Positions 17,761 to 55,010 of a DNA stretch of 55,010 bases are shown piece after piece (positions within the stretch are counted from its first letter, which is position 1; the number at the start of each line of letters is the position of its first letter). The translations under genes were made by a program, and so were the position numbers. Source of the DNA: an uncultured Bacilli bacterium (GTDB taxonomy: Bacteria > Bacillota_I > Bacilli_A > RF39 > UBA660); NCBI GenBank assembly GCA_947589195.1, contig CANPZX010000001.1:1-55010 (forward strand), read 5' to 3'. The notes beneath the pieces were generated by a model, which did not search any database, was not told the origin of the DNA, and worked only from the letters and a program-made list of their open reading frames with translations.

Positions 17761-18130
17761 TTTGGGTTTATCACCCCGCAAGGAGAAGTAGGATTAATGT
17801 ACCCAAGTGATTATGGCTATGCAACCGAAGGAGGCAGTTTAGGACGAAACTTATGTTTAAATTAATTGGAGTAATGGAGAATATCAAAGTAATTGTGCAT
17901 ATACCGATTGGTTATTAAACAAAGATTCGTCTCAACATCGGATATGGACTCTTTCGCCGCATTCGTCCTCTAGCGATCATGCTTTCTATGTCTTTATTTC
18001 AGGACATGTCAAAAATAGCAGCTACTATGTCTATGGTCAAGGTGCCGTTTCTCCAGTCCTATATCTAAAAAGCAATATAGAAATAAGTGGAGGAGAAGGT
18101 AGTCCTTTAAATCCATATATTTTAAAATAA
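17761..18130 (+). pseudogene. 3' remnant (copy E) of the NPY-tail surface-protein family, frameshifted
   Basis: Reads ..PQGEVGLMYPSDYGYATEGGSLGRNLCLN, then shifts frame to WSNGEYQSNCAYTDWLLNKDSSQ..WTLSPHSSSSDHAFYV...AVSPVLYLKSNIEISGGEGSPLNPYILK. This is collinear with the last ~120 aa of the gene ending at 48058. About 9 of 10 nt were identical over the first 60 nt I aligned by eye. Confidence 0.8.
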
Positions 18131-18305
18131 AGAATATTTAAAAAAGTAGAAAATTAACTATTGTCAAATTTACTGTCTATTTACTATTAATAAAGAAAAA
18201 TATTTCTAAAATTATTAAGATAATGATATAATTAATATGTAAAATAGAGAAAGGAGAATGTGACTATGTGGGCTTGGTTAAAAAGATTCTTATAATCTAA
18301 CTTAA

Positions 18306-18335
18306 AAAAGGCTTTCCTTTTGGGAAGCTTTTTTG
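18306..18335 (+). terminator. Terminator-like hairpin plus T-run upstream of the hrcA promoter
   Basis: AAGGCTTTCC-tttt-GGGAAGCTT (imperfect stem) followed by TTTTT. Directly follows a 9-codon mini-ORF. Confidence 0.45.
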
Positions 18336-18358
18336 ATGGAAAATAAAAATAAAATAAT

Positions 18359-18386
18359 TTAGCACTCATATATTGACAAGTGCTAA
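18359..18386 (+). promoter_or_regulatory. CIRCE operator 1 (HrcA binding site)
   Basis: TTAGCACTC-n-AGTGCTAA, close to the consensus TTAGCACTC-N9-GAGTGCTAA. Overlaps the -35 box. Confidence 0.8.
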
Positions 18387-18401
18387 GCATAATATTATAA
18401 T
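18373..18401 (+). promoter_or_regulatory. SigA-type promoter of the hrcA-grpE-dnaK operon
   Basis: TTGACA (18373-18378), 17-nt spacer, TATAAT (18396-18401). Confidence 0.7.
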
Positions 18402-18405
18402 AGGA

Positions 18406-18432
18406 CTAGCATTTCAAATAAAAGAGTGCTAA
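18406..18432 (+). promoter_or_regulatory. CIRCE operator 2 (degenerate left arm)
   Basis: CTAGCATTT-CAAATAAAA-GAGTGCTAA with 9-nt spacing, between the -10 box and the hrcA start. Confidence 0.6.
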
Positions 18433-18448
18433 ATAAGAGGTGACAAAG

Positions 18449-19453
18449 GTGGACGAAAGACAGAATAAACTTTTAAAAGCTATTGTTGAGTCGTATATTA
18501 AAACTGTTAAACCAGTGGGTTCTAAATCTTTGTGTCAAAAATTTAAATGTTCTAGTGCCACGATTCGTAATGAAATGGTAGTCTTAGAAAATTTAGGTTA
18601 TATTGAAAAAAATCATATATCTTCTGGCAGAATACCTAGTGAAGCTGGATATAAATATTATGTCGAGAACTTAATGAGACCGAAAGAATTAACTGGAGAA
18701 GATATGTTAAAATTACAAAGAATATTTGAAAATAATAGCCTAGAGTTAAGTGATTCGATTACTAAAACAGTTGAAATAATAAGTGAACTTACTAATTATA
18801 CTAGTATTATATTAGGTAAAAGCTCTAAAGAAAATACTTTAAAACAAGTAAGTATTATTCCTTTAGATGAACATAAAATTATCGCTTTAGTTTGTACTAA
18901 TAAAGGGATTATTGAAAATAAGCAATTTCTTTTAGATGAAAAATCTAATTTAGATGAAATAGTAAAAACTAGTGAAATAATCAATAAAATGTTAGTAGGT
19001 ACACCAATTAATGAAGTCGCGGGTCGTCTAGAATTTGAAATTAAGCCCATTATTAGTCGCCAGATTAAGCAGTATGAAACTGTTTATAATATCTTTGCTG
19101 ATGCTTTTAATGATTTTCTTAATAAAAGTCAAAATATATATTTTGGGGGTAAAACTAAAATTTTTAATGAACCAGAATATAATGATGTTGAAGATATAAA
19201 AAAATTGGCTAGTAAATTTGAAGATACGGAAAGTATTCGAAGAATTGAAGAAGATTCACCAGATAATGAAGTTAAAGTATATATTGGAAAAGAAAATAAA
19301 TTTGATCCCAATGTTACAATTATTAAAAGTAAATATAACATAAATGGTGAAGAAGGAACTATCGCGATTGTCGGTCCTAAAAGAATGGAATATGATCGGG
19401 TAGTGGGTTTACTCGAATATTTAAAAGATACTTTAAATAAGCAGGACAAATAA
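18449..19453 (+). CDS. hrcA: Heat-inducible transcription repressor HrcA
   Basis: ERQNKLLKAIVESYIKTVKPVGSKSL, winged-helix N-terminus, followed by grpE. GTG 18449 is 5 nt after AAGAGGTGA; the ORF opens at GTG 18440. Confidence 0.9.
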   Translation: MDERQNKLLKAIVESYIKTVKPVGSKSLCQKFKCSSATIRNEMVVLENLGYIEKNHISSGRIPSEAGYKYYVENLMRPKELTGEDMLKLQRIFENNSLELSDSITKTVEIISELTNYTSIILGKSSKENTLKQVSIIPLDEHKIIALVCTNKGIIENKQFLLDEKSNLDEIVKTSEIINKMLVGTPINEVAGRLEFEIKPIISRQIKQYETVYNIFADAFNDFLNKSQNIYFGGKTKIFNEPEYNDVEDIKKLASKFEDTESIRRIEEDSPDNEVKVYIGKENKFDPNVTIIKSKYNINGEEGTIAIVGPKRMEYDRVVGLLEYLKDTLNKQDK

Positions 19454-19470
19454 AGAAAGAGGATATAAGT

Positions 19471-19992
19471 ATGGAAGAAGAACAAATTGCTGAAAATAAA
19501 AATACGATGGAAAAGCCCAAGAAAAATAATAAGTGTCATAAAGAAATAGAAACATTAAAAGAAGAAAATAAAGCTTTAAATGACAAAGTATTAAGACTTA
19601 ATGCAGAAATCCAAAATATGCGTCGGCGAAGTGAAGAAGAAATTTCCAGAATTTATAAATATGAGGGAGAAGATGTAATTAAAAAAATCTTACCAATTAT
19701 TGATAATTTTGAAAGAGCTATTAAAATGGATGATAATGATTTAACTGATGAAGTAAGTAAATTCTTAAGTGGGTTTAAAATGATTTATACTAATTTATTA
19801 AATGTTTTAAATGAAAAAGAAATAACGGAAATAGAATGTTTAAATAAAGAATTTGATTCTAATTTAATGGAAGCAGTATTAACTGAAAAAATAGAAGGAT
19901 TAGAAAAGAACCAAGTTGTTGAAGTCTTACAAAAAGGTTATATATATAAAGATAAACTTCTTCGTCCGGCTATGGTTAAAGTTAGTGAATAA
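19471..19992 (+). CDS. grpE: Nucleotide exchange factor GrpE
   Basis: Coiled-coil N-terminus, RLNAEIQNMRRR, ILPIIDNFERA, GYIYKDKLLRPAMVKV. Confidence 0.9.
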   Translation: MEEEQIAENKNTMEKPKKNNKCHKEIETLKEENKALNDKVLRLNAEIQNMRRRSEEEISRIYKYEGEDVIKKILPIIDNFERAIKMDDNDLTDEVSKFLSGFKMIYTNLLNVLNEKEITEIECLNKEFDSNLMEAVLTEKIEGLEKNQVVEVLQKGYIYKDKLLRPAMVKVSE

Positions 19993-19993
19993 A

Positions 19994-22326
<2,333 letters not shown>

Positions 22327-22342
22327 TATTAAAAACCAAGAT

Positions 22343-22366: not shown

Positions 22367-22389
22367 ATTTAAAAGTTAGGAGAATAAAG

Positions 22390-25315: not shown

Positions 25316-25344
25316 TTGACAAGAATTTAAGGTATTGTTATACT
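25316..25344 (+). promoter_or_regulatory. SigA-type promoter for family gene A
   Basis: TTGACA (25316-25321), 17-nt spacer, TATACT (25339-25344). Confidence 0.6.
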
Positions 25345-25374: not shown

Positions 25375-26655
25375 ATGAAGAAAAAATATAAATTTGGTTT
25401 AAAAACAGTTGGTTTTCTTTTAATTATCGCTCTAGTAAATGTCTTTTTATATTTAGATTTTAAAAAAAATTATGATCCTAGAACAAGTAGCATTGTAGTT
25501 GTTAATAATGTTTTATCAGTTAATTATGAATATGGGCAAAACTTAAAAGTAAAAAAAGATGATGAAGTATCTCGTTTTTCAATTACAAATAATTCTTCTG
25601 ATAAAATTTATTACTATATTGCTATTTCTTCTGTTCAAAGTAATAATTCTAATTTTAAATTTGATTTACATGAATCAAGTGGTAAAATTAATATTAAACA
25701 AGATAACTTTCCGGCCCAAGATGCTTATTTAGTAAGTTTTGTCGAAATAGAACCTAATACCACTCATAATTATGAAATAAATTTATATAAAGAAAATAAT
25801 CTTAATTTTAAAGCTAAATTAGTTGTAGGTGTTGAAGATGAAGTTGAGGAATATTTTGCTTCAACTATTTTAAAAAATAATTCTTTAAAATTTCCTACTA
25901 CTAAAATAGCAATCGAAGCCGCAACTAGTGATGAAGGTTTAATTGAAACTAATGATGATTTCGGCTCTTCTTATTATTTTCGGGGTAATGTCCAAAATAA
26001 TTATGTTTCTTTAGGTAATAATCTATGGCGAATTGTAAAAATAAATGGCGATGGAACTGTTAAACTTGTTTTAGATGATTATTTAGAATTATCCCAATAT
26101 ATGTATGATTCTACATCATCTTTAAATTTAAGTGAAAAATTAGAATTTATTAATACCAAAGTTTATAATTATTTAAATGAATTTTATGAAAATAATTTAT
26201 TAGAGTATGATAAAATAATTTCTAATCATAAGTTTTGTATCGAAGATAATGAAACAACATATGATGAAAAAACTAAAACTACTTATTATCAAGGTTATGC
26301 TCGAGCAACCCAAGATTTTAATCCTTTATATAATTGTTTTGGTAGTCTTTTTTCCCATAAAATAGGTTTATTAACTATTGATGAAATCTTATTAGCGGGA
26401 GCATCAAAAGATACTGATAATAAAGATTTCTATTTATATACTCCTGATGAAACCTATGGTTTTTGGTCTTTAACTCCATCTAGCAGTACGGATAGTGATG
26501 TTTCATATTTTAGTTTATCCAATACTGGTAAATTAATATATACTGATGTCGGTAGTTCTTATCGGGGAGTTAAACCAGTAATTAATTTAATTAAAAAAGT
26601 TATGGTAAATGGTGATGGAACTAAAACCAATCCTTATACTATTAAAGAATCTTAG
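25375..26655 (+). CDS. NPY-tail surface-protein family, copy A (N-terminal anchor, beta-rich variable domain, WRIV...KPVINL C-terminal domain)
   Basis: Basic-hydrophobic N-terminus, RFSITNNSSDKIYYYIAIS module, NYVSLGNNLWRIVKINGDG, GVKPVINLIKKVMVNGDGTKTNPYTI tail. Same architecture as 46402..48058. Confidence 0.75.
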   Translation: MKKKYKFGLKTVGFLLIIALVNVFLYLDFKKNYDPRTSSIVVVNNVLSVNYEYGQNLKVKKDDEVSRFSITNNSSDKIYYYIAISSVQSNNSNFKFDLHESSGKINIKQDNFPAQDAYLVSFVEIEPNTTHNYEINLYKENNLNFKAKLVVGVEDEVEEYFASTILKNNSLKFPTTKIAIEAATSDEGLIETNDDFGSSYYFRGNVQNNYVSLGNNLWRIVKINGDGTVKLVLDDYLELSQYMYDSTSSLNLSEKLEFINTKVYNYLNEFYENNLLEYDKIISNHKFCIEDNETTYDEKTKTTYYQGYARATQDFNPLYNCFGSLFSHKIGLLTIDEILLAGASKDTDNKDFYLYTPDETYGFWSLTPSSSTDSDVSYFSLSNTGKLIYTDVGSSYRGVKPVINLIKKVMVNGDGTKTNPYTIKES

Positions 26656-26658: not shown

Positions 26659-27159
26659 GTGAAAGAATTGAAAGCATTATTAAAAGATATTGGAGGTTTT
26701 TTAAGTACTCTGACGGGAATCGATATTCTCTTATATTGTGCAGTTTTATTTTTAATATTATTAGTTGTCTGTTTAGCTTATATTATTAAGAATACTGATG
26801 ATGAAGAAGAACCAGAATCAAATGAATTAGACTTAGCTAAAGTTGTTAAAACATTAGAACAAGAACAAGAAGTTCCAATCGTTAATCATACTTCTTATGA
26901 AAAAGAACAAGAAGAAAAAGCAATTATAAGTTATGATGAATTACTAGCTCAAAGTAAAAATAAAAATAATTATAATTATGATGAAGAAATAATTACAAAT
27001 GACGATGACTTAAAAATAAAAAAAATAGATTTAACTAAAAAAATAGTTTTACCAGAACTTCCGAAAGATAAAGAAGAAAATAGTAATCCTATTATGTTTA
27101 AGTATCAAGAAGAAGAAGAATTTTTAAAAACTTTAAAATTATTTATTCAAGAATTATAG
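26659..27159 (+). CDS. Small membrane-anchored, highly acidic protein (unknown function)
   Basis: One TM helix (ILLYCAVLFLILLVVCLAYII), then D/E-rich sequence (DDEEEPESNELD, EQEQE, EKEQEEK). The start is uncertain: GTG 26659 or TTG 26668. Confidence 0.6.
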   Translation: MKELKALLKDIGGFLSTLTGIDILLYCAVLFLILLVVCLAYIIKNTDDEEEPESNELDLAKVVKTLEQEQEVPIVNHTSYEKEQEEKAIISYDELLAQSKNKNNYNYDEEIITNDDDLKIKKIDLTKKIVLPELPKDKEENSNPIMFKYQEEEEFLKTLKLFIQEL

Positions 27160-27203: not shown

Positions 27204-28424
27204 ATGAATTTAAAAAAATTTTCTAAAAATAAAAAATTAACTACTAGTTTAATCTTATTAGGATTATTTTTCCTAATTGGTGGAGGATTCTTGATTTATC
27301 GGACCTTTGCTTTATATTCTGAAAATAAAGAATTTAATGTTATTAAAGGTAGAGTTCCGGAATTTATAAAAGGACTTAAAAGTTTTGATGAACTAAAAAC
27401 TTATGCGGTTCCTAATTATTGTATTGACCATAATATTGTTCAAGTTTCTCATGAAAGTGATTATATTGAAGAACTTGATTACCATGCTTTTAATAGCTCT
27501 TTAACTAACGAAACAGTATATAACAATTTAAAAATGCCCGAGTATCGTTTTTGTGGGTCTAATCCCAATAACTATGTAACATTTAATGGTGAAGTTGCTG
27601 GGTGGCGAATAATTGGGCTTGTTAATACGCCGGAAGGTCAACGGATCAAATTAGTTAGAGCTAATCCTTTAGATGTTGAATTAGCTTGGGATAATAAAGC
27701 TGCCGGAGTAGGGACAGCAACGTTTGATTATGGAAGTAACGATTGGACAGATGCTGCATTGCAAGAATTATTGAACAAAGGTGCTTATTATCTTGGTCAA
27801 AGTGGTAATTGTCCATTAGGACAAAAAGGAGGAACAATTCCCTGTGATTTTAGCGAGTCTGGCTTAACAGATAATGCTAAAGAAATGATTGATACAATTA
27901 CTTGGAATCTAGGGGGTTATTATACGCAAGATATGTCGGTTTCTAATGCTGATTTAGTAAAAAACTTTTATGAATATGAAAGAGGTAAAGGAACATATAG
28001 ATATACTAGTAATAGACCACTTATGTGGCAAGGAAAGATTGGTTTATTGTATCTTTCTGATTATGGTTATGCTGCTGGAGGAATGGGTAAAGAAATGCTT
28101 TACTATCCCCAATGTATGGCGACTCCGATGTTTAACTGGGGATCAAACGAAAATTATATTTTCTGCTTATATGATAATTGGTTAAATAAAGAAAACTTGG
28201 GCCAATGGTTGTTAATGCCAGATGATCAATCTAATTTTATGGTATGGTATTATTATAATAAAGGGCAAGACTCATGGCCATATTCAATGTTTTTATCGAA
28301 TGTAAATGATTTATATGAACCAGCTAGTGTAATTCCCACTTTATATTTAAAACCTAATGTCGAGATTAAAAAAGGTAATGGGACTATAGAATATCCTTAT
28401 GAATTAACAATAAAGACGCTTTAG
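27204..28424 (+). CDS. NPY-tail surface-protein family, copy B (short N-terminal region)
   Basis: N-terminal anchor ...GGGFLIYRTFALYSE. NNYVTFNGEVAGWRIIGLVNTPEGQRIK, YGSNDWTD..LQELLNKG, IDTITWNLGG, WQGKIGLLYLSDYGYA, VIPTLYLKPNVEIKKGNGTIEYPYEL. Close paralogue of copy C. Confidence 0.75.
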   Translation: MNLKKFSKNKKLTTSLILLGLFFLIGGGFLIYRTFALYSENKEFNVIKGRVPEFIKGLKSFDELKTYAVPNYCIDHNIVQVSHESDYIEELDYHAFNSSLTNETVYNNLKMPEYRFCGSNPNNYVTFNGEVAGWRIIGLVNTPEGQRIKLVRANPLDVELAWDNKAAGVGTATFDYGSNDWTDAALQELLNKGAYYLGQSGNCPLGQKGGTIPCDFSESGLTDNAKEMIDTITWNLGGYYTQDMSVSNADLVKNFYEYERGKGTYRYTSNRPLMWQGKIGLLYLSDYGYAAGGMGKEMLYYPQCMATPMFNWGSNENYIFCLYDNWLNKENLGQWLLMPDDQSNFMVWYYYNKGQDSWPYSMFLSNVNDLYEPASVIPTLYLKPNVEIKKGNGTIEYPYELTIKTL

Positions 28425-32743: not shown

Positions 32744-35164
32744 ATGAAAAATATGAAAAAAAATTTGTTGTTAGTTGTAAGTAGTATTTTATTAGTAGTT
32801 TGTAGTTTTTTAGGAGGTGCTCTAGTTGTCTCGGCTAGTGAGACTGCTAAATTTACGGAGTCTTTTATTGGCCAGTACCATTATGTTGATACTAAAGGTA
32901 AATATGGTGATTTTCAACATTTTACTAGAGTAAGTGATGGGATGATTGCTTATTGTATTGAACCAGGAGTTCCACCTACAAGTAGTAGTTATGAAGGTTT
33001 TTCCGATTTATCTTTAGAAGAAATGGCTCTTAAAGTGGGGTTAAGTAGTGAAACTTTAGAAAAGGTGAGTTTAATAGCTTACTTTGGCTATGGTTATCAA
33101 GACCATTTAAGTGATGAATGGATTGTCGCGACTCAAAGTTTGATTTGGCAAGAAACGGGGCGGAGTTTTTCGTTTACTAGTAAAAATAATCGGGAAGATC
33201 CTGATAAATATAAAATTAGTACGCCAAAGACTATAAAAAGTAAGATGGAAGAGATTACTTCTTTAGTTAATGATTTTATAAAAAAACCAATTTTACCAAC
33301 AGAAGAAGTAAAATTATGGCAAGGCGAGTCTCATTATTTCCAAGATAGTGCCTTAAAAAATTATCAAATAAAAAATAAAGTAAATTGTACAGCTAGTTTA
33401 AATGGTGATAATTTATTCTTTACCACGGAAGGAAATGAAAGTGGCAAAATTGTCTTAGAAAGAAAATATACCGCTTGGAATGGCAGTTTTATCGTCTATC
33501 ATCATCAAACTGGTCAAGATATGATTGTTCCTGGCAAAGGTATTATGGACGAAATAGAATATAATTATACCTTAGTTAAAGGTAAAGTAATTATTAATAA
33601 AAAAGATGGTAATACTAAGAGTTGTACCCCTGAATTAAAAGATACCGTTTATCGGTTATATGATGCTTATACGGAAGAATATAAAACCGATATTTATGTT
33701 AATGAAAATTGTCAAGCTATTTTTGGGTATATATTTCAAAAAGGAAAATATTACATTCAAGAATATAAAGCTCGTCCAGGGTATAAATTAGATGATACTA
33801 AATATTATTTTGATATTAATGATGAAATAACGGAAGTATCATTTGATTTAGAGAATCAAAGATTACTAGGTCAAATTAAAATAACTAAGTTGGATAAAGA
33901 TAGTAAAACTTGTCAAAGTCCTAATCATACTAGTTTAACTAATGCCGTATATGGAATATATAAAACAACCGGGGAGTTAGTCGATCAACTTATCACTAAT
34001 GATAATTGCGAGGCCCTATCTTTAAGAAACTTAGAAATGGGAGATTATTATTTAGAAGAAATCACGGCTCCGTTAGGTTATCAAAAAGATTTAGAAAAAC
34101 ATTATTTTAGTATTACCTTAGATAATGTTGAAGACATAATAGAAATACCTTTACAAGATGAAGTAATTAAAACTGAATTAATTATCAATAAAACATATTT
34201 AGTAAATAATGAATTAAAACCCGAAATCGGGGCCGTATTTGCCATATATGATGAAATAACTAATAACTTAGTTGCTACTCTTACCATTGATGAAAGTGCC
34301 CAAGCTAATGTTGTACTTACATATGGTACATATATTTTAAAACAAGTAAGTGGCCAACCAGGTTATGAAAAATCTAAAGATTTAAGAATTATCGTCGATG
34401 AAAATACTAAGATAAAAACTTATATTACTTTATTAAATCAAGAATTTAAAGTTCGGTTAAAAGTTAAAAAAGTAGATGAATTAGGGAATCTTTTAAATAT
34501 TCCCAATATAAAATTTAAAATTTATGATTTAATAAATGAAAAGTATGTATGTCAAAAAATAACTTATCCAGAAGTTAAAGAAATATGTGAATTTAGTACT
34601 TTAGAAAATGGAACATTTATAACCCCGATGGGCTTAAAACCATCTAAATACTTACTAGAAGAAGTAAGTGATACTAATCCCGGTTATATTTGGAATAAAG
34701 ATGGTTTAGAGTTCGAAATAAATCCCGATTTAAGTTATCAAACGGATCCTGATTTAGGATTAATACTAGAATTAGATTTTGTTAATGAAAAAATGAATGG
34801 CAAATTAGAGTTTTATAAATTAGATAAAGAAACTAAAAAACCTTTATCAGGAGCGATAATTGATATTTTTAGAGAAGATGGTAGTTTATATAAATCTTTA
34901 ACAACTGATGAAAATGGCCGAATATATTTAGAAGATTTAGAATATGGTAAATATTATTTAGAAGAACATTTAGCCCCTAATGGTTATACTTTATATGAAG
35001 AAAAAATGTGGTTTGAAATTGTCAATAATGATGTTATTGAATTAATTATGGAAGATGAAATAATTGATATTCCTAATACTTATTTAAATGAAATTGATTA
35101 TTTTAGTATCTTTAATATCATAACTATTTTAGGTTTAATAATTTATGAAAAAAAATATTGTTAG
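32744..35164 (+). CDS. Cell-surface adhesin: signal peptide, thioester (TQXA-type) domain, multiple Cna-B/SpaA-fold domains, C-terminal sorting-like signal
   Basis: Signal peptide ...VVSASE. Thioester pair candidates AYCIEPGVPP (Cys71) and VATQSLIWQ (Gln131). Repeated modules of the type GKLEFYKLDKETKKPLSGA...GKYYLEEHLAPNGYTL. Tail IPNTY + FSIFNIITILGLIIY + EKKYC. Confidence 0.85.
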   Translation: MKNMKKNLLLVVSSILLVVCSFLGGALVVSASETAKFTESFIGQYHYVDTKGKYGDFQHFTRVSDGMIAYCIEPGVPPTSSSYEGFSDLSLEEMALKVGLSSETLEKVSLIAYFGYGYQDHLSDEWIVATQSLIWQETGRSFSFTSKNNREDPDKYKISTPKTIKSKMEEITSLVNDFIKKPILPTEEVKLWQGESHYFQDSALKNYQIKNKVNCTASLNGDNLFFTTEGNESGKIVLERKYTAWNGSFIVYHHQTGQDMIVPGKGIMDEIEYNYTLVKGKVIINKKDGNTKSCTPELKDTVYRLYDAYTEEYKTDIYVNENCQAIFGYIFQKGKYYIQEYKARPGYKLDDTKYYFDINDEITEVSFDLENQRLLGQIKITKLDKDSKTCQSPNHTSLTNAVYGIYKTTGELVDQLITNDNCEALSLRNLEMGDYYLEEITAPLGYQKDLEKHYFSITLDNVEDIIEIPLQDEVIKTELIINKTYLVNNELKPEIGAVFAIYDEITNNLVATLTIDESAQANVVLTYGTYILKQVSGQPGYEKSKDLRIIVDENTKIKTYITLLNQEFKVRLKVKKVDELGNLLNIPNIKFKIYDLINEKYVCQKITYPEVKEICEFSTLENGTFITPMGLKPSKYLLEEVSDTNPGYIWNKDGLEFEINPDLSYQTDPDLGLILELDFVNEKMNGKLEFYKLDKETKKPLSGAIIDIFREDGSLYKSLTTDENGRIYLEDLEYGKYYLEEHLAPNGYTLYEEKMWFEIVNNDVIELIMEDEIIDIPNTYLNEIDYFSIFNIITILGLIIYEKKYC

Positions 35165-35666
35165 AATTATTATTTTAATCTTAATTATACTTACTTATTT
35201 AAAACCATTAAAAGCTGAAACTTTCGAAGAAAATATAACATCGGCTTTATTAACTAAAGAAGTAAGCTCTGATATTAATATGTATCAAAAAATATTAGAA
35301 ATACCTAAAATTAAATTAAAGAAAGGTTTTTATGCAATAAATAGTCCTTTTAATCAAGTAAAATATGGCATTGAAGTAATTAAAGATGACCCTAATTTAC
35401 TCATTTTAGCCAGTCATAGTGGTAATGCGAAAATATCTTATTTTAAAAATTTAAATAAATTAGAAAATAATGATGAAGTAATTATAAGTAGTCCTGCTAC
35501 GAAAGAATATTATAAAATAGTTTACCATTATGAAATAAATAAAAATGGTCAATTTAAAGTTTTAAATGATGGCTTAGATAAAAAGATAATATTAATAACT
35601 TGTTCGAAAGAAGATAAAACTAAACAAATAGTTTATGTGGGAAAATACGAAAAAAAAGAAGTCTAA
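35145..35666 (+). CDS. Sortase-family transpeptidase, translationally coupled to the adhesin
   Basis: N-terminal anchor, LEIPKIKLK, His block LILASHSGN, Cys block IILITCSK. Start overlaps the adhesin's 3' end by 20 nt. Confidence 0.8.
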   Translation: MKKNIVRIIILILIILTYLKPLKAETFEENITSALLTKEVSSDINMYQKILEIPKIKLKKGFYAINSPFNQVKYGIEVIKDDPNLLILASHSGNAKISYFKNLNKLENNDEVIISSPATKEYYKIVYHYEINKNGQFKVLNDGLDKKIILITCSKEDKTKQIVYVGKYEKKEV

Positions 35667-38678: not shown

Positions 38679-39566
38679 TTAATCTATAATTGCAAGTACG
38701 TATTTTATTAGACTGTTCTTTATCATTTCATCTTCTAATTTATTAATTGAAAAAGTTTTACTTCCTGCATAATTAAGAGATGATCCACAATGATAAACTG
38801 CTTTTCGATCTAATATAATATATCTATCATGAAAATAATTATTATAAACAATCTTTAAATTATTATATTGCTCTTGGTATTTATTTATATCTATTTCTTT
38901 TAATAAACCATTATTTTTACAAATTATAGTTACGTTAACTTTTAAATTTCTTATCATATCTAAAACATTTTTATCGGCATAATTATCAATAATAATTATG
39001 TTGTCATAGGCTCCTTTTAAAATATCAACTATTTTTGAATAAGCATCATAAATTTGGCCATTAAAATAAATTTCATTATCTTTTTTCTTTTCTTCAAATT
39101 TAATAAAAGATTCTTGCAATAATTTGATATCTTCATCGTGTTTTATTACTAAATTATTAATATATTTTTGTTCAATTAATTCATTAGAAATATATTTTCG
39201 CATTATTACAAAAGCATCCATAATTGCAATACTTACTTGGGTTGCAACATTAGATTTTAAAATAGTGGCAAGCATCGCTACACCTTGTTCTGTAAATACT
39301 TGAGGTAAAAATTTTGAATATTGTCCCCGTTTAAGTTCTAAGGTCGCATTTTGCGACCTTAGAATACCAATATATTCATTTTTACTTAATTTAAAGCAAA
39401 ATCTTGCTGGAAATTTTTGAGGATTTCTTTTTACTGCTTCATTAATTCTTTTTGTTTCTACTTCATAAAGTTTTGCTAAATCTGAGTCAAGCATTACTTG
39501 CTTTCCTCTTACTTCATAAATCATATTTTCTATTTTTACTTGTTTTGTTAGCATAACATCATTCAT
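38679..39566 (-). CDS. ORF6N-domain protein (KilA-N-related DNA-binding N-terminus) with uncharacterised C-terminal domain; intact copy 1
   Basis: IYEVRGKQVMLDSDLAKLYEVETKRINEAVKRNPQKFP..FCFKLS, FTEQGVAMLATILKS. C-terminal ...FHDRYIILDRKAVYHCGSSLNYAGSKTF. Confidence 0.8.
   Translation of the reverse strand: MNDVMLTKQVKIENMIYEVRGKQVMLDSDLAKLYEVETKRINEAVKRNPQKFPARFCFKLSKNEYIGILRSQNATLELKRGQYSKFLPQVFTEQGVAMLATILKSNVATQVSIAIMDAFVIMRKYISNELIEQKYINNLVIKHDEDIKLLQESFIKFEEKKKDNEIYFNGQIYDAYSKIVDILKGAYDNIIIIDNYADKNVLDMIRNLKVNVTIICKNNGLLKEIDINKYQEQYNNLKIVYNNYFHDRYIILDRKAVYHCGSSLNYAGSKTFSINKLEDEMIKNSLIKYVLAIID
39336..39364. repeat. Perfect intragenic palindrome in ORF6N copy 1 (13-bp arms, 3-nt centre)
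   Basis: TTCTAAGGTCGCA-ttt-TGCGACCTTAGAA, checked base by base. Encodes ILRSQNATLE near codon 72. Confidence 0.95.
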
Positions 39567-39843: not shown

Positions 39844-40208
39844 TTTTGCATCATTACAAAAGTGTGTATAATACTAGTACTTACTTTCAAGGCAACCGAA
39901 GTTCTTAAAATACTTGCAAGCATCGCAACTACTTACTCGGTAAAAACATATGGATTTTTTCTAATTCCACCATGCTTTGAAGTTTCAAATTGAAACTTCA
40001 AGTTTTTATATTCTTCGTTAGTTAATTGAAAATAAAAATCTTCAGGAAACCTATCAATATTTCTTTTTACTGATTGATTAATCGTCTTAGTTCCATTTAC
40101 ACATTCATAAAGTTGGGCTAAATCAGAATTGAGCATTACTTGCTTTCCTCTTACTTCGTAAATCATATTTTTAATCTTTTCTTCTTCAATTAATGCCATT
40201 GCATTCAT
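39844..40208 (-). pseudogene. ORF6N copy 3: N-terminal domain plus stub, nonsense-interrupted and 3'-truncated
   Basis: MNAMALIEEEKIKNMIYEVRGKQVMLNSDLAQLYE...YVFTE-TAA-VVAMLASILRTSVALKVS... TAA sits where copy 1 has CAA (Gln). The C-terminal domain is absent. The 5' leader (catct(t)aaaataccccc..ttcgtttataa) is duplicated from copy 1. Confidence 0.7.
39977..40001. repeat. Perfect palindrome in ORF6N copy 3 (12-bp arms, 1-nt centre)
   Basis: TTGAAGTTTCAA-a-TTGAAACTTCAA. Encodes LKFQFETS near codon 73. The sequence is unrelated to the copy 1 palindrome but sits at the same position. Confidence 0.95.
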
Positions 40209-46330: not shown

Positions 46331-46401
46331 TAATATTTTTTTATTTACATAACAATAAATTTTATGTTATTATTTCTATAGAATAAAGGAGATGTTAAGA
46401 A

Positions 46402-48058
46402 ATGACTGAAACACGTTTAGGGGGGGGGGTTATTAAGAAGTAAGAAAGTAATCCTTACATCTTTAATAATCTTCCTTGTAGCATTAGTAATAGGGGTAAC
46501 TTATGCTTATTGGAAAGTAGATGAAAAACAAACTTCCTTAAATTTATTAAATTCTAATTGTTTAAAAGTAACATATGAAGACATAAATGAAGGGATAACG
46601 ATTGAACATGGCTATCCCATGAGTGATAGTGATGGCATGGAGGAACCATATTACCAATTTACGATATCAAATATCTGTGAAAATGATTGGGCCTCTTATC
46701 AAATAAATATAGAAACAATTGAAGCTTCAACAGAGGAAACTCCCAAATATTTGCCGGAGCGATATATAAAAGCTAATTTAAGTGTTGGAGAAGATAGTAA
46801 AGTAACAACGAAATTAACAAGTGATTTAAATGTTACACCAACAATTGAAGAAGCAGTAAGAGCTTATAAATTATTAGTAGCTAAATTAGCCCCAGGAGCA
46901 AGTGTAACTTATGATTTAAGATTATGGATGGACGAAGGAGTAACAATGGAAAACACCGATGCAATGAACGCTACCTATGAAAGTAAGATAAGTGTAGTCT
47001 TTAGTTATATGGAACCACCAGTATATTTAGTCGATAAAATAAAAGAACAAGCAAGTAAAGATGAAAATGTCTGTGGAGATAATGGAATAGTAGAAGTAAA
47101 ACATGATGACGCTACGATTGCAGATATTGATTATCATACATTTGATGAAAAATTAAATAATGAAACAGTAAAATCCAATCTAAAAATGACGGAATATCGA
47201 TATTGTGGAGAAGACCCTAATAATTATGTAACATTTAATAATGAAACAGCTGGCTGGCGAATAATCGGATTAGTTAATACTCCGGAGGGTCAACGAATTA
47301 AAATAATCAGAGCAACACCATTATATCTGAATTTATCATGGGATAATAAACCAAGTGGAACTGGTTCATCAAATAGCTCATATGGAAGTAATGATTGGAG
47401 CGATTCAAGATTACAAGAATTATTAAATAAAGGTGGAGCCTATTATAATCGAACAAGTGGTACTTGTTATAAAGGCTCAAGTAATGCATCAACCTCATGT
47501 AATTTTGGAGATAGTAGTGAAACACCTGGGTTAACCGCTGAAGCAAAAAATATGATAGATACAATTACTTGGAACTTAGGAGGAACTGCTAGTTACAGTA
47601 GTGCTTCCAATGGACTTACAAAACACTTTTACAATTATGAAAGAGGGATAATAGTTTACACAAACAGTAGTTTAACAAATCCAAGGCCAACCTTATGGCA
47701 AGGAGAAGTAGGCTTAATGTATCCTAGTGATTATGGATATGCAACCGGAGGAGGTAGTACCTATAACCGTGGAGCATGTTTAAGTAAGGAATTATACAAT
47801 TGGAGTAGTGGAACATATCGAAGTAATTGTGCCCATACAGATTGGCTATTAAACAAAAGTTCATATCAATGGACTCTATCGCCGTACTCGTCGGCTAGCA
47901 ACTATGCCTTCTATGTGCATACTGCGGGTATTGTCTACAGCAACTACTATGTCAACAGTGCGTACGCCGTCGCGCCAGTCCTATATCTAAAATCCGATGT
48001 GCAAATAGGAGAAGGGAGTGGTCTTGATACGAATCCTTATACTTTGGAACAAGGGTAA
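46402..48058 (+). CDS. NPY-tail surface-protein family, copy C; poly-G phase-variable, frameshifted (OFF) as sequenced
   Basis: ATG 46402 with RBS AAAGGAG. G10 at 46420-46429 gives MTETRLGGGVIKK-stop. With G9 the frame runs through LLRSKKVILTSLIIFLVALVIGVTYAYW... into the 479-aa track ORF (46619..48058). The span is 1657 nt, which is 3n+1. Confidence 0.8.
46420..46429 (+). repeat. G10 homopolymer (slipped-strand phase-variation tract)
   Basis: Counted directly: g at 46420 plus nine g at 46421-46429. Confidence 0.95.
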
Positions 48059-49528: not shown

Positions 49529-49529
49529 G

Positions 49530-50147: not shown

Positions 50148-50581
50148 TGGATAATATTAATAATGAGTTTGGTTATACGAAAGATTATAGTTATTTAAGT
50201 GAGGTAATTAAAGAAACTTTAGAGCACGAACAAGCAACTGATGCCTTATTTGAAATTACTTTTGTTGATGAAGAAAAAATAAGAAAAATTAACCATCAAT
50301 ACAGGCATATTGATAAAATAACGGATGTCATATCTTTTGCTTTTGAAGATAATCAAGATTATATTCCAAAAATAAGATTTCTCGGCGAAATATATATATG
50401 TATTCCGAGGATGCAAGAACAAGCCCTAACTTATGGGCATAGCGAAAAAAGAGAATTAGCTTTTTTATGTGTTCATGGGCTTTTACATTTACTAGGATAT
50501 GATCATCAAGAAAAAGCTGAAGAAAAAGTTATGTTTGCCTTACAAGATGAAATTCTAAATAAAGTTGGCATAACTAAATAG
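50147..50581 (+). CDS. ybeY: Endoribonuclease YbeY (16S rRNA maturation)
   Basis: TDVISF, zinc motif HGLLHLLGYDH. GTG 50147 overlaps the vanZ TAG. Confidence 0.9.
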   Translation: MDNINNEFGYTKDYSYLSEVIKETLEHEQATDALFEITFVDEEKIRKINHQYRHIDKITDVISFAFEDNQDYIPKIRFLGEIYICIPRMQEQALTYGHSEKRELAFLCVHGLLHLLGYDHQEKAEEKVMFALQDEILNKVGITK

Positions 50582-50596
50582 TAAGGAAGTAGAAAA

Positions 50597-51481: not shown

Positions 51482-51535
51482 AATTTAAAAAATATCCCCA
51501 TTATATATTTAGAAAGAATAAAATGGGTGATAAAA

Positions 51536-51628
51536 ATGAATAAAGAAACAGCTTGGCAAAAATTTAAAGAATCAGGTAAAGTTGAAGATTATTTAGAGTA
51601 TGTTAAATTAAAGAGAAGTGAAAAATAA
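51536..51628 (+). CDS. yqzL: YqzL-family small protein (30 aa)
   Basis: MNKETAWQKFKESGKVEDYLEYVKLKRSEK. Stop overlaps the recO ATG (TAATG). Located between era and recO as in Bacillus. Confidence 0.6.
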   Translation: MNKETAWQKFKESGKVEDYLEYVKLKRSEK

Positions 51629-52359
51629 TGATTTCAAAAGTTGAAGGAATAATTATAAGTGAAACAGCTTATGGTGAAACTTCGAAAATAATGCAAGTAT
51701 TTACTAAAGAATATGGAATCATAGGTATAATGGGTAAGGGTGTTAAATCTATAAAAAGTCCCTTGCGGGCTCTTACTCTTAAATATACTTATGGTTCTTT
51801 TAATATTTATTATAAAGAAAATAAATTATCTCTTTTAAAAGATGTTGATATAATTAATCCTTTAAAAAATATTAAAAGTGATATTACTTTAATTGGTTAT
51901 CTTGGTTATTTATGTGATTTAGCGCATCAAGTTTATAAACAAAATAATAATAAAATAATTTATGATTTATTAATCCAAGGTATTTTAAAAATTGAAGAAG
52001 GTTTAGATCCTTTAGTTATTACGAATATTTTAGAACTTAAATTTTTAAAGTTTTTAGGTGTAGGCTTAGAATTAGATTCATGTATTTTATGTGGTAGTAA
52101 AACTAATATTTTAACAATTGATGCGGATGCTGGGGGTTATGTTTGTCAAAAATGTTATACTAATGAAATAATTGTTAATAAAAAATGTATTAGTTTAATT
52201 AGAATGTATTATTATGTTGCTTTAGAACAAGTAAAAGAACTTAAAATAAGTAAAGAAGTAGCCAGTGAAATAAATAGATTTATTGATCGTTATTATGAAA
52301 GATATACGGGTTTATATTTAAAAAGTAAAGATTTCTTAAATAAGATATTATCGTTATAG
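51628..52359 (+). CDS. recO: DNA repair protein RecO
   Basis: OB-fold N-terminus (EGIIISETAYGETSKI), zinc motif C.LCG...C..C. Confidence 0.85.
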   Translation: MISKVEGIIISETAYGETSKIMQVFTKEYGIIGIMGKGVKSIKSPLRALTLKYTYGSFNIYYKENKLSLLKDVDIINPLKNIKSDITLIGYLGYLCDLAHQVYKQNNNKIIYDLLIQGILKIEEGLDPLVITNILELKFLKFLGVGLELDSCILCGSKTNILTIDADAGGYVCQKCYTNEIIVNKKCISLIRMYYYVALEQVKELKISKEVASEINRFIDRYYERYTGLYLKSKDFLNKILSL

Positions 52360-52394
52360 TAATATTTTAATTTGTGACAACAATAATTTTATCT

Positions 52395-52422
52395 TTGTAA
52401 TTTCTTATAAGTATGTTATAAT
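52395..52422 (+). promoter_or_regulatory. Extended -10 promoter for the T-box leader
   Basis: TTGTAA (52395-52400), 16-nt spacer ending in TGT, TATAAT (52417-52422). Confidence 0.55.
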
Positions 52423-52427
52423 TTAGT

Positions 52428-52552
52428 CATACAAGTGTTGATGAGCTTGGCAAACTCGGAGCTATATAAAATAAAAGTGATTCGCTAAAGAATAAAAAGG
52501 GTGGAACCGCGGAAATATTATTTCGTCCCTTGGGCTTTCTTTAGTGTTTTTT
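52428..52552 (+). promoter_or_regulatory. Glycine-specific T-box riboswitch leader (short glyQS type)
   Basis: T-box sequence AAAAAGGGTGGAACCGCG (~52495-52511) with a UGGA bulge. Specifier-loop candidate GGC-A at 52449-52452. Terminator arms CTAAAGAA / TTCTTTAG followed by a T-run (to ~52552). Confidence 0.85.
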
Positions 52553-52571
52553 AATTTAAGGAGGGATAATT

Positions 52572-53093
52572 TTGAATGTATTTGTAGCCCACACTTTTAG
52601 TGAGAATTTAAGTGCTGATTATTATGATTTAATATTACAAGTTTATAAACTAATTAAAGAAAATAATCATAAAATATTAGTTGGTGGTTTATTTACGAAA
52701 CTAAAAGATAATTTATTAGAATATGAAGATATTATTACTTGTTATTCATTAAGAAAATATCAAGAAGAAGAACGTAAATTATTACCAAATGGAAAATATA
52801 TTTTAACTGATAATATTTATAGTCGGACTAAAAATTTAATGGAAAATAGTGATATAGTAGTTATATTACCTGGCGGATCGGGCTCTTTAGCGGAAATATT
52901 TAGTATTTTAGAAGCATATAAATATCTTGAAAGTAAAAATAAAATTTATATTCTTAATTATCATAATCATTATGATGATTTAATTAATTATTTAAAAAAG
53001 TTAGAAGATAATAAATTTAATAAAAGAACAGATTTAGCTTATTTAAAAATTATTAATTTAAAAGAATTAAAAAGTATTTTAGAAAGTAGGTAA
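52572..53093 (+). CDS. LOG/TIGR00730-like Rossmann-fold protein (divergent)
   Basis: VILPGGSGSLAEIFSILE matches the PGGxGTxxE motif. The N-terminal GGGxxGxMG motif is poorly conserved. TTG start after AAGGAGGG. Confidence 0.6.
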   Translation: MNVFVAHTFSENLSADYYDLILQVYKLIKENNHKILVGGLFTKLKDNLLEYEDIITCYSLRKYQEEERKLLPNGKYILTDNIYSRTKNLMENSDIVVILPGGSGSLAEIFSILEAYKYLESKNKIYILNYHNHYDDLINYLKKLEDNKFNKRTDLAYLKIINLKELKSILESR

Positions 53094-53097
53094 AATT

Positions 53098-54477
53098 ATG
53101 AAAATGGATGAATTAGTTAATTTTTGTAAACAATATGGTTTTATATTTCAAGGAAGTGAAATTTATGGAGGATTATCAAATACTTGGGATTATGGTCCTT
53201 TAGGAATTGAATTAAAAGAAAATATAAGAAGAGCTTGGTGGAAAAAATTTATTCAAGAAAATCCATATAATTATGGTATTCAAAGTGCTATTTTAATGAA
53301 TCCGAAAGTTTGGGAAGCAACTGGACACGTTACAAGTTTTAATGATCCCTTAATTGATTGTAAACATTGTAAAATGCGTTTTCGAGCTGATAAATTAATT
53401 TCGGAATATATGAGTGGTAAAAATAAGGAAATATCTTGTGATGGTTGGGAAAATGAAAAATTAGAAAACTTTATTAAAGAAGAAAAAATACCTTGTCCTA
53501 ATTGTGGAAGTTTAGATTTTACCGGAATTCGGCAATTTAACATGATGTTTAAAACTTTCCAAGGAGTAACGGAAGATGCTAGTGCAACAGTATATTTAAG
53601 ACCAGAAACAGCTCAAGGAATGTTTGTTAATTTTAATAATATTGTTAGAAGTATGCGAGTTAAAGTACCATTTGGAATTGGTCAAACTGGTAAGAGTTTT
53701 CGAAACGAAATAACTCCGGGTAATTTTACTTTTAGAACTAGAGAATTTGAACAGATGGAATTAGAATTTTTCTGTAAACCAGGTACTGATTTAGAATGGT
53801 TTGGCTACTATAAACAATTTTGCATGGACTTTTTAAAAAGCCTAGGAATTAGTAAAGAAAACTTACGTTTCCGGGATCATGCCAAAGAAGAATTAGCCTT
53901 TTATAGTGTAGCTACAACCGATATCGAATATCGATTCTTACATGGTTTTGATGAGCTTTGGGGAATAGCTGACCGAACAGATTATGATTTAACTACGCAT
54001 AAAGAACATAGTGGGGTTGATTTATCTTATATTGACCCTCAAACAAATGAAAGATATATACCTTATTGTATTGAACCAGCAGTAGGTCTAGATCGTTTAA
54101 TTCTAATGTTTTTAACAGAAGCTTATACTAAAGAAAAATTAGAAAATGATGATGAACGAGTTGTTTTAAAACTTCATCCTTTCTTAGCTCCAATTAAAAT
54201 AACAATTTTACCTCTTATTAAAAAAGTTCATGGCGATAAAGCAAATGATTTATATGCCCGACTTTGTAAAAGTTTTAATTGTAGTTATGATGATGCTGGT
54301 AGTATCGGGAAAAGATATCGAAGAAGTGATGCTGTTGGAACACCATTTTGTATAACTATTGATGATGAAACTTTACAAAATGATACAGTTACTTTAAGAG
54401 AGCGTGATACAATGGAACAAATTACTATAAAAATAGCTGATTTAGAAAGTTATATTAGTAAACATCTTGAGTTTTAA
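53098..54477 (+). CDS. glyQS: Glycine--tRNA ligase (single-chain alpha2 type)
   Basis: FQGSEIYGGL...WDYGPLG, RPETAQG, FRNEI.P....R.REFEQME.EFF, GLDRL, anticodon-binding C-terminus. Confidence 0.95.
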   Translation: MKMDELVNFCKQYGFIFQGSEIYGGLSNTWDYGPLGIELKENIRRAWWKKFIQENPYNYGIQSAILMNPKVWEATGHVTSFNDPLIDCKHCKMRFRADKLISEYMSGKNKEISCDGWENEKLENFIKEEKIPCPNCGSLDFTGIRQFNMMFKTFQGVTEDASATVYLRPETAQGMFVNFNNIVRSMRVKVPFGIGQTGKSFRNEITPGNFTFRTREFEQMELEFFCKPGTDLEWFGYYKQFCMDFLKSLGISKENLRFRDHAKEELAFYSVATTDIEYRFLHGFDELWGIADRTDYDLTTHKEHSGVDLSYIDPQTNERYIPYCIEPAVGLDRLILMFLTEAYTKEKLENDDERVVLKLHPFLAPIKITILPLIKKVHGDKANDLYARLCKSFNCSYDDAGSIGKRYRRSDAVGTPFCITIDDETLQNDTVTLRERDTMEQITIKIADLESYISKHLEF

Positions 54478-54480
54478 ATA

Positions 54481-54505
54481 ATTGTCTTAAAAGGCAATTT
54501 TTTTT
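54481..54505 (+). terminator. Terminator after glyQS
   Basis: ATTGTC-ttaaaa-GGCAAT (one G-T pair) followed by T7. Confidence 0.55.
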
Positions 54506-54719
54506 AGAAAATAAAAAAGTACTATTAATTAGTACTTAAACTTTAAGGAAAGGATGCGAGGATACAATTACAAATTGATAATTATATACCTGCTTTTAGA
54601 AAAGGAATAAATCCTTTCCTAATTAATAGTATACACTAATATTATTAAATTTCAACTATTTTTGATTTACTAAGTTAAATAAAAATGTTAAGATATAGAT
54701 AAGAATGGAGAAGATGAAA

Positions 54720-55010
54720 ATGGAAAAAATAGCAAATGGGGGGGGGGTTATTTAAGAGTAAGAAAGTAAGACTTTCTATTTTAATAATTCTCTTAATAAC
54801 GTTAGTAATAGGAAGTACCTATGCCTTATGGCAAATAACCCATATCCAAACCGGATTAAATAAATTAGCAAGTAATTGTTATGATATTGAATTTAGTGAA
54901 CAAGATAATATAGTTTTAAAAGAAGCCATACCGATATTAAATAGTGAAGGAGAAAAGTTAACTCCCTATATAATAAGCATCAAAAATACTTGTGATGCTG
55001 AAACTAAATA
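54720..55010 (+). CDS. NPY-tail surface-protein family, copy D (5' part only; runs off the window); poly-G phase-variable, OFF as sequenced
   Basis: ATG 54720 is 9 nt after GGAG (an in-frame ATG also exists at 54714). G10 at 54738-54747 gives MEKIANGGGVI-stop (TAA 54753-54755). With G9 it reads MEKIANGGGLFKSKKVRLSILIILLITLVIGSTYALWQ...TPYIISIKNTCDAETK and stays open to the window end. Confidence 0.75.
54738..54747 (+). repeat. G10 homopolymer (second phase-variation tract)
   Basis: Counted directly: ggg at 54738-54740 plus seven g at 54741-54747. Confidence 0.95.

Follow-up and report, generated by a model that had tools for sequence, protein, structure and literature searches.

What are five related genes, dispersed between the housekeeping operons of an uncultured gut bacterium, doing there? 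The question is raised by a 55,010-nt stretch of DNA (contig CANPZX010000001.1 of GenBank assembly GCA_947589195.1, positions 1 to 55,010 of the forward strand), here called the window and always meant at its full length, which comes from an uncultured Bacilli bacterium of the RF39 lineage. A description made from the letters alone, referred to below as the sequence-only reading, had recognized in it an unnamed five-member surface-protein family (copies A, B, C and D and remnant E) with two poly-G switches, and had likened it to a variable surface-antigen or adhesin system. We consider it probable that these genes encode exported DUF6273-like binding proteins, with copy A (together with a neighboring gene, X) as a constitutive core and the remaining paralogues as an accessory set placed under slipped-strand poly-G switches.

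The full 55 kb, with a GC content of about 27%, was searched for family copies and for G/C runs. All five elements were recovered with unchanged coordinates, and tblastn found no further copy in the window:

Remnant E, 17761 to 18130, + strand: 3′ stub of a C-type family gene, matching C residues ~433–549
Copy A, 25375 to 26655, + strand: 426 aa, intact open reading frame (ORF)
Copy B, 27204 to 28424, + strand: 406 aa, intact ORF, situated between X and mtaB
Copy C, 46402 to 48058, + strand: a 551-aa protein at G9; G10 in the assembly
Copy D, 54720 to 55010, + strand: 5′ part only; the gene continues past the window end

E lacks the 5′ part of the gene, and its translations revealed an internal frameshift near position 17862; the family hidden Markov model (HMM) matched it with an E-value of 2e-21, and its sequence marks it as a decayed, dead 3′ stub. 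The corresponding E-value for D was 2e-23, and the N-terminus of D is laid out like that of C, with a TYALW motif followed by the beginning of a beta-sandwich.

BLASTP aligned B with C at 47% identity over 353 aa (E 1e-93), C with E at 61% over 121 aa, and C with D at 42% over 87 aa. The nucleotide-level similarity of B and C noticed in the sequence-only reading was borne out (68% identity over 649 nt), and extended to C and E (71% over 342 nt) and to C and D (75.5% over 98 nt). The similarity between A and C was weak by BLASTP (35% over 65 aa). When 94 C/B-type and 110 A-type homologues, each set aligned, were compared as profiles using hhalign, the two types matched over their whole length (404 columns) with 99.6% probability and an E-value of 2e-24, indicating that A is a true though distant family member. 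The bracketing NYV..WRI(I/V) and PV(L/I)(Y/N)L segments and the terminal GxG(S/T)..(N/Y)PY tail, picked out earlier from the window copies, turned out to be near-invariant alignment columns, and the C/B-type domain has an invariant YPSDYGYA motif and a Cys pair of its own. Database searches gave more than 3,367 matches for C, many of them full length at 40–47% identity, and 680 matches for A, all of 411–426 aa. The family profile matched 14,053 representatives of 50%-identity clusters at E ≤ 1e-3 (3,137 of them at the stricter E ≤ 1e-30), C-domain repeats numbering up to 7 in some, and the family is indeed unnamed, its members being labeled only “hypothetical protein” in the sources. Among single proteins, P0241 (2446 aa) contained up to 7 matched C-domain stretches, and P0009 (963 aa) carried a C-terminal extension that appeared by eye to be FGE-sulfatase/C-lectin-like.

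Only two G or C runs longer than 6 nt were present in the window, against about 0.02 expected from its composition. Both are G10 tracts, one in C and one in D, and they are listed with two further sites that bear on them:

G10 tract of C, 46420 to 46429, + strand: codons 7–10; proposed slipped-strand switch
G10 tract of D, 54738 to 54747, + strand: the ATGs close to the ribosome-binding site (RBS) lie at 54714 and 54720; G9 puts them in frame, G10 out of frame
Promoter-like site upstream of C, 46344 to 46373, + strand: TTTACA, 18 nt, TG-TATTAT (consensus match only)
GGT GGA GGA (Gly-Gly-Gly) in the transmembrane (TM) segment of B, 27279 to 27287, + strand: B-type relatives have an uninterrupted G10 there

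At G10, the ATG of C at 46402 reads M-T-E-T-R-L-G-G-G-V-I-K-K-stop (13 codons), while the downstream frame is open for 545 codons (46421–48055); G9 joins both frames into a 551-aa protein, such that G10 would be OFF and G9 or G12 ON. The number of sites like the promoter-like one upstream of C was not above that in shuffled sequences. Both tracts proposed as switches are thus real, and a 1-nt change in either shifts the frame; length polymorphism was not observed. N-termini homologous to that of B and carrying G10 were found at two relatives’ loci (L001:12279 and L154:4639), and B, with GGT GGA GGA at this position, therefore looks like an interrupted, locked-ON form.

Tracts of the same kind recur beside family genes across many related species. 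A scan of 161 relatives’ loci (1.35 Mb) returned 35 G runs of at least 8 nt, compared with about 1.1 expected, and no C run longer than 6 nt. The run lengths (G5, 217; G6, 18; G7, 1; G8, 4; G9, 10; G10, 18; one each of G11, G13, and G19) followed a bimodal distribution with the second mode at G9–G10, and all long tracts were on the sense strand of the gene. About 25 of the 35 were located immediately before or at the opening of a gene matching the family HMMs, and several others preceded genes for other exported proteins that share the N-terminal motif or have a DUF6273-like domain. The tracts fell into three position classes: 13 occupied the spacer of a promoter, with 15–25 nt (17-nt optimum) between TTGACA-like and TATAAT-like hexamers; a second class, to which C and D belong, was immediately 3′ of the start codon; and the third was within the TM segment of B-type proteins, at the two loci given above. 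As a separate observation, every long run was poly-G: no long poly-C run was seen, promoter spacers included, although the strand should not matter there, and the modal length was G10.

Nine coding tracts were unambiguous (that of C in the window and eight in relatives), and each was one G from frame. The ORFs 3′ of the tracts were open for 500–560 codons in DNA of about 27% GC, suggesting maintained genes rather than pseudogenes. This bears on the view that C, D, and E are decaying members of a redundant family and that mutation or assembly produced the G runs by accident, a view that draws on the plain decay of E and the dinD-like pseudogene beside it, on the out-of-frame state of all coding tracts in the assemblies, and on the error-prone reading of poly-G by two-colour Illumina chemistry together with the breaking of contigs at tracts. 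We regard it as quite unlikely. C is open over its 545 codons apart from one frame offset and has a confident fold predicted by AlphaFold2 (AF2), and the eight other tract-bearing genes, in other species, are likewise open. Moreover, assemblies made independently in different studies have tracts at homologous positions and inside conserved promoter cassettes, and the runs show a discrete G9–G10 mode on one strand only.

The same out-of-frame state (9/9), as well as the identical tract length (G10) in independent samples, would suit slippage of RNA polymerase along the G run, or frameshifting by the ribosome, either of which would yield a constitutive in-frame fraction from “OFF” alleles. We judge this very unlikely: the correction needed varies by locus, being −1 or +1, the 13 tracts in promoter spacers are untranscribed and slippage cannot act there, and no frameshift-stimulating signal was evident in the sequence. 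Transcriptional slippage is best documented for A/T runs.

One promoter cassette, TTGACA-N3-G10-N7-TATAAT followed by a leader of about 190 nt, was kept across paralogues and several species, and an Rfam scan of this poly-G promoter and leader returned no relevant family. The cassette with its leader was seen at L198:1010–1200, L185, L086:4739–4900, and L109:4802–4990; the leader contains CTATGGTGATTTTTT, a possible upstream ORF of ~20 codons, and a second TGnTATAAT-like site. Poly-G-associated genes for different exported proteins were seen at L001:12266–13417, L069:7107–8021, L018:653–1423, and L032:7458–8219, two of these proteins having a DUF6273-like domain of another subtype and two being small and ending in CYAYF; those of L001, L018, and L032 have the same aromatic-Ala-aromatic N-terminal motif. 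The occurrence of motif and tract together on different exported proteins suggests that they may form a portable 5′ module. An apparently cytoplasmic peptidase-like gene (L004:8610–9269, the same record as L172:10610) also had a poly-G promoter in front of it, whose spacer at G10 is a perfect 17 nt, and the tracts are therefore not strictly confined to exported proteins.

We also examined how far the individual copies are conserved. A scan of genome collections for A gave at least 80 loci from species-level metagenome-assembled genomes (MAGs) labeled uncultured Bacilli, Tenericutes, Mycoplasma sp. CAG:776, Candidatus Onthocola, and similar, and 82 loci were then compared by tblastn of the window neighbors. 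A was followed by X and then mtaB in about 57 of the 82, dnaJ was upstream of A wherever the related contig extended that far, most related loci kept the order pepF-dnaJ-A-X-mtaB, and a relative at 54% identity had the order hrcA-grpE-dnaK-pepF-dnaJ-A-X-mtaB, with B missing. Two features of the window belong to this interval:

X, 26659 to 27159, + strand: 166 aa; a TM segment and an acidic linker precede a conserved C-terminus
Sigma-70-like promoter match upstream of A, 25316 to 25344, + strand: TTGACA, 17 nt, TATACT (by eye; consensus match only)

The promoter-like site of A contains no homopolymer tract. This ordinary site and the syntenic conservation of dnaJ-A-X-mtaB in most related genomes examined argue that A is not variable, and its inclusion among variable antigens did not hold; from its sequence context, A is a constitutive, vertically inherited core gene between dnaJ and mtaB. 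Conserved, syntenic copies, which the sequence-only reading had named as evidence against itself, were found for A and for that copy only. X, which is co-conserved with A in the dnaJ to mtaB interval of about 57 relatives’ loci and gave no significant Pfam or NCBIfam match, may be a functional partner of A.

B was not present between X and mtaB in L001, the closest relative with data, and appears to be a lineage-specific extra copy inserted there. More generally, B, C, D, and E look like accessory paralogues gained and lost between lineages. Dispersed multi-copy paralogues were seen in relatives too: one MAG had at least 6 C-type loci among the best 80, at least 2 family ORFs were present in 19 of 79 C-type loci, and extra paralogues lay within 4 kb of A in 13 loci besides the window. 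Some family members (P0106, P0025, and P0026) have no tract, and tractless members were identical in more than 20 contigs. The proposed variable surface-antigen system would fit the accessory copies with tracts, and fits neither the conserved A nor the tractless, identical members. Remnant E carries a “GGSLGRN.CLN” loop that is found in relatives’ genes and not in C; a role of E as a gene-conversion or recombination donor was considered and set aside, the hint of patchwork similarity being too thin.

The copies had also been described as lying at junctions between housekeeping operons, which is true of every copy in the window and recurs elsewhere only in part. E is adjoined by rpmA and hrcA, A and B are between dnaJ and mtaB, C is between MurT/GatD and YqfC/YqfD, and D comes after GlyRS. 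In four other species (L102, L104, L125, and L152) a family gene was present beside rpmA or hrcA; in L109 one lay 3′ of dnaJ, and in one other case the neighbor was glyS. At the gatD|yqfC junction, no recurring family gene was found among the relatives’ loci.

To what kind of protein do these genes give rise? C was modeled by AF2 from the exact window frame 46421–48055 (545 residues), with the family alignment as input. The model, with a predicted local distance difference test score (pLDDT) of 88.4 and a predicted template-modeling score (pTM) of 0.76, consists of a TM helix (residues 5–28), a low-confidence linker (27–44), a beta-sandwich (48–197), a helix (203–213), and a mixed alpha/beta C-domain (222–545). 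The AF2 model of A (pLDDT 91.3) has its parts ordered as in C, with a TM helix at aa 3–32, a beta-sandwich at ~40–153, and a DUF6273-like C-domain at ~186–426, and B has a TM anchor with a TFALY motif followed directly by the C-domain, without the beta-sandwich. The N-terminal export or anchor helix foreseen from the sequence is present in the models of C and A, and the beta-rich module foreseen for A, C, and D is a beta-sandwich in both models, of which D has the start.

The best PDB fold match of the C model in Foldseek was 9qa6, an IgA peptidase of Thomasclavelia ramosa (E 1.8e-7, 323 columns), and the aligned length suggests that the match covers the C-domain; the first ~290 residues of this peptidase are annotated as a DUF6273 domain (PMC12402451). 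Foldseek matches in BFVD included several phage “DUF6273 domain-containing” proteins, with E-values from 1e-7 to 3e-4, and one tail-collar fiber protein, and PHROG 9958 was matched at 1e-6. At the sequence level, C scored 15.0 bits (E 0.022) against DUF6273 (Pfam PF19789), for which the gathering threshold is 23.5, and a Pfam scan gave no PF19789 match for A or B. Among relatives, PF19789 was matched at E ≤ 0.01 by 11 of the 94 C-type proteins and by 19 of the 110 A-type proteins, and some pass the precomputed PF19789 annotation. The resemblance to DUF6273, which had been suggested loosely, is therefore real at the structural level for the C model and marginal at the sequence level. PDB matches of the A model were confined to weak, generic beta-sandwich and carbohydrate-binding module (CBM) folds, with no DUF6273-bearing match among them; the link of A to DUF6273 rests on the profile homology to the C type and on the PF19789 matches of its relatives. 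An assignment of function to A from its PDB fold matches was dropped, these being weak and generic. A search of PDB sequences with the full-family profile returned nothing significant.

For other DUF6273-like domains, a resemblance to C-type lectins has been reported, along with a role as targets of diversity-generating retroelements (DGRs) in phage receptor-binding proteins (PMC10743442). The C-type-lectin fold assignment was not reproduced for this family; by analogy, the C-domain would bind a ligand. Bracketing WRI.. and ..PV.YL strands are common to the DUF6273 proteins and the family, and both occur in gut Firmicutes surface proteins and in phage receptor-binding proteins. By contrast, the C/B-type domain of the family is larger (~320 aa) and is joined to a TM helix and a beta-sandwich, whereas the DUF6273 references are joined to a peptidase or to an Ig/Fn3 array and include phage “tentaclin”/DGR-target proteins. 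The references are without established function. In a full-text literature search DUF6273 was mentioned by seven papers only. No DGR was noticed near the family copies, no search having been aimed at DGRs.

The phage-related matches raise the prospect that the copies are prophage remnants encoding receptor-binding (tail-fiber) proteins. Phage tail proteins and DGR targets often carry DUF6273 domains, the fold matches in BFVD were to phage DUF6273 and tail-collar fiber proteins, a PHROG was matched, and DUF6273 has been reported in phage receptor-binding proteins (PMC10743442). We nevertheless hold this origin to be extremely unlikely: the copies carry N-terminal membrane helices, they are situated between housekeeping operons with no phage genes nearby, and A has been inherited vertically, in the same gene order, throughout the clade. 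Neither a reverse transcriptase nor a template repeat was noticed near the copies, no search having been aimed at either.

The N-terminal anchor had been read as ending in a T(Y/F)A(Y/L)(W/Y) motif in all copies and as resembling SipW-type (TasA/camelysin-like) signal peptides. In the form [ST][YF]Ax[WFY], the motif was found in 93 of 94 C-type homologues; among the window copies, B, C, and D have it, and A, like most A-type proteins, does not. Against TIGR04088 (SipW-dependent signal), C scored 12.9 bits (E 0.098), below the cut-off of 19, and 2 of 94 C-type relatives matched at E ≤ 0.1. A crude regular-expression search of the window and of the 161 loci (1.35 Mb) for the S26 SGSMxP/SSMxP box gave no plausible peptidase. 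The motif thus resembles a SipW-type signal, while the score stays below the cut-off and the S26 motif is missing from the DNA searched; SipW-type processing is unproven from these sequences. Window proteins gave no match to TasA/camelysin PF12389 or NF046066; among 94 relatives, one matched PF12389 (Peptidase_M73) at 2e-4 and six matched NF046066 (TasA) at 0.013 or weaker. The second PDB fold match of C was the archaeal bundling pilin AbpA of Pyrobaculum (7ueg; E 2e-4, target-normalized TM-score 0.37), with chaperone-usher pilins coming next, all weak (TM-score ≤0.37); from their aligned lengths, these matches were assigned to the beta-sandwich. A profile of this N-terminal module found no TasA, no pilin, and nothing significant among PDB sequences.

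These results bear on another account, according to which the proteins are TasA/camelysin-like matrix or fiber subunits that undergo SipW-type cleavage after the [ST][YF]A motif, the conserved unstructured N-terminal segment serving as a donor strand that polymerizes the beta-sandwiches into fibers bearing DUF6273-like heads. The near-universal motif (93/94), its presence also on unrelated exported proteins behind poly-G tracts, and its resemblance to the TIGR04088 SipW-cognate signal, best for C at 12.9 bits, are in keeping with this account. So are the weak TasA matches (6/94), the Peptidase_M73 match (1/94), and the second rank of AbpA followed by chaperone-usher pilins among the PDB fold matches. 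AbpA is said to be TasA-like and donor-strand-assembled (see PMC9245690), and residues 27–44 of the C model are conserved in sequence, yet low in pLDDT. We consider the account unlikely, as every sequence match is under its curated cut-off, the N-terminal module profile retrieved neither TasA nor a pilin from the PDB, the TM-score to AbpA is low, and neither the window nor the 1.35 Mb of family loci contains an S26-type motif. The gene sipW normally adjoins its substrate genes. Moreover, [ST]-x-A fits ordinary signal peptidase I equally well, and A is without the motif. TasA/CalY (Peptidase_M73) and AbpA are like the family in an N-terminal [GST]-aromatic-Ala-aromatic signal followed by a beta-sandwich and in the weak HMM and fold matches, and unlike it in that the family has a large extra C-terminal domain, sub-threshold matches, and no adjacent sipW that could be found. 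A bolder combination would make [ST][YF]Ax[WF] a dedicated processing signal, the disordered segment after it a donor strand, the A–X pair a membrane-anchored base, and the poly-G-switched paralogues interchangeable DUF6273-like tips, that is, a modular, combinatorial, phase-variable surface-fiber system of uncultured gut Bacilli unlike any described Gram-positive pilus; taken jointly, these proposals are speculative and, in our opinion, improbable.

We return to the reading that we prefer, that of exported binding proteins with a constitutive core and switched accessory copies. The host, a walled, low-GC gut member of the Bacilli, would make a family of extracytoplasmic proteins, each with a signal/anchor helix at the N-terminus, in most cases a beta-sandwich stalk after it, and a globular DUF6273-like domain at the C-terminus, and these proteins would be displayed at the surface. 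Slipped-strand mispairing at the poly-G tracts would control the accessory copies: C would be OFF at G10, with the loss of 1 nt restoring a full-length exported protein; D would be OFF at G10 from its RBS-linked starts; B, whose tract would have been lost (GGT GGA GGA), would be fixed ON; and E would be a dead stub. In relatives with promoter-spacer tracts, tract length would set the −35 to −10 distance. The subset of binding proteins on each cell would then be stochastic, heritable, and reversible, and the purpose may be evasion of IgA or phage, or varied adhesion.

Several points weigh against this account. The window copies all fall below the Pfam threshold for DUF6273. No LPXTG sorting signal or lipobox was present in the translations of the window copies and no wall-binding module was seen in them, the C-termini ending in GxG(S/T)xx(N/Y)PYxhxx with no hydrophobic tail and there being no Cys at the end of the hydrophobic (h) region of the signal; retention would therefore depend on an uncleaved anchor, although [ST]-x-A fits a signal-peptidase site. 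All nine unambiguous coding tracts are OFF in consensus assemblies. D is ambiguous owing to an ATG at 54736 (AAT plus the first G) that overlaps the tract, has no Shine-Dalgarno sequence, and is in frame at G10, and a relative’s protein (P0003) is called from the equivalent start; D is probably OFF in the assembled state. The relatives’ loci were chosen for carrying family genes, which in part builds in the association of tracts with the family; less biased samples are the window (2 of 2) and the loci selected with A. Two promoter tracts, at the P0023 and P0020 loci, were G10 throughout, one in 4/4 and the other in 2/2 contigs from different samples; the only length difference was between species (G9 in L121 versus G10 in L133 and L155). 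Two exact-pattern scans of JGI metagenome contigs for tract-length variants gave 0 matches, contig look-ups for P0002 and P0003 came back empty, and the window’s own species occurred once in the collections searched. Lastly, contigs ended at, in, or within 7 nt of a tract in 3 of the 7 places shown for one locus and in 1 for another, which may mean heterogeneity and may equally mean poor poly-G sequencing.

The remainder of the window carries Bacillus-like housekeeping and cell-wall genes, recognized by eye from translations and with Pfam: in the first half, a gene for an LCP-family protein, recD2, mutS, nusB, xseAB, proS, mreCD, rplU-ysxB-rpmA, and hrcA-grpE-dnaK-pepF-dnaJ; in the second half, mtaB, mraY, pbp, ftsW, murG, murT-gatD, yqfC-yqfD, ybeY, era, recO, and glyRS. 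Immediately upstream of E, at 17390–17750, in-frame stops interrupt a dinD-like (DNA-damage-inducible protein D) pseudogene, which together with E makes a small decaying islet with rpmA on one side and hrcA on the other. Several other features were noted by eye. At 32744–35666 there is an 806-aa repeat-rich Cna-B/SpaA-like surface protein ending in IPNTY plus a hydrophobic tail, followed by a 173-aa sortase-like ORF, apparently a separate, conventional surface-anchoring system. A paralogous ORF pair on the − strand (38679–39566 and 39933–40208, the latter a short fragment) shares an “IYEVRGKQVML.SDLA.LYE” N-terminal segment that looks DNA-binding-like (ORF6N/Rha-type), and at the window edge (174–419) an 81-aa ORF resembles the C-terminal part of an IS200/IS605-type transposase.

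RF39-like, “Tenericutes”-labeled gut Bacilli are common in human and animal guts, uncultured, and functionally almost unknown. The family described here is very large, unnamed, and predicted to be exported, and its fold is one used by phages for receptor binding and carried by a gut IgA protease. If the tracts really switch, these bacteria would possess a contingency-gene system comparable to that of Campylobacter or Neisseria, with a bearing on their persistence under IgA and phage pressure; for work with MAGs, frameshifted “pseudogenes” and contig breaks at G10 would then be biology and not error. The conserved core (A and X) set against switchable accessory copies offers a concrete entry point for experiments.

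Homopolymer contingency loci are known from the poly-G genes of Campylobacter jejuni, the poly-A promoters of Mycoplasma hyorhinis vlp genes, the opc and nspA promoter tracts of Neisseria, and sabA of Helicobacter pylori. Like these, the family combines long mononucleotide runs, in the −35/−10 spacer or just past the start codon, with multi-copy surface-protein genes, in which ±1 nt alters the frame or the spacer length and several independent loci are present per genome. Long tracts are far more numerous than chance would allow (2 versus 0.02 expected in the window, 35 versus ~1.1 in the loci), and a change of one unit toggles an ORF or promoter spacing (9 coding tracts; spacers of 15–25 nt). 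Full-text literature searches returned no relevant report of phase variation in RF39 or these lineages, or of poly-G promoter spacers in Firmicutes. Related papers on homopolymer tracts and phase variation are PMC2715451, PMC6389960, and PMC2831843. In a Gram-positive mucosal commensal, slipped-strand mispairing has been described for the Gardnerella sialidase NanH3, an extracellular, suspected cell-wall-associated protein (bioRxiv 10.1101/2020.09.16.300947); this concerns a single enzyme gene of an actinobacterium and promoter-spacer tracts are not mentioned in the abstract, whereas the present family consists of many paralogues. The family further differs from the known contingency loci in its uncultured gut Bacilli host, in the protein family concerned, in a third tract position within the signal/TM segment, and in tracts that are always sense-strand G, and its switching is a prediction from sequence. 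Collectively, the proposed switching mechanism would be a classical one, and what is new is the protein family and the lineage in which it occurs.

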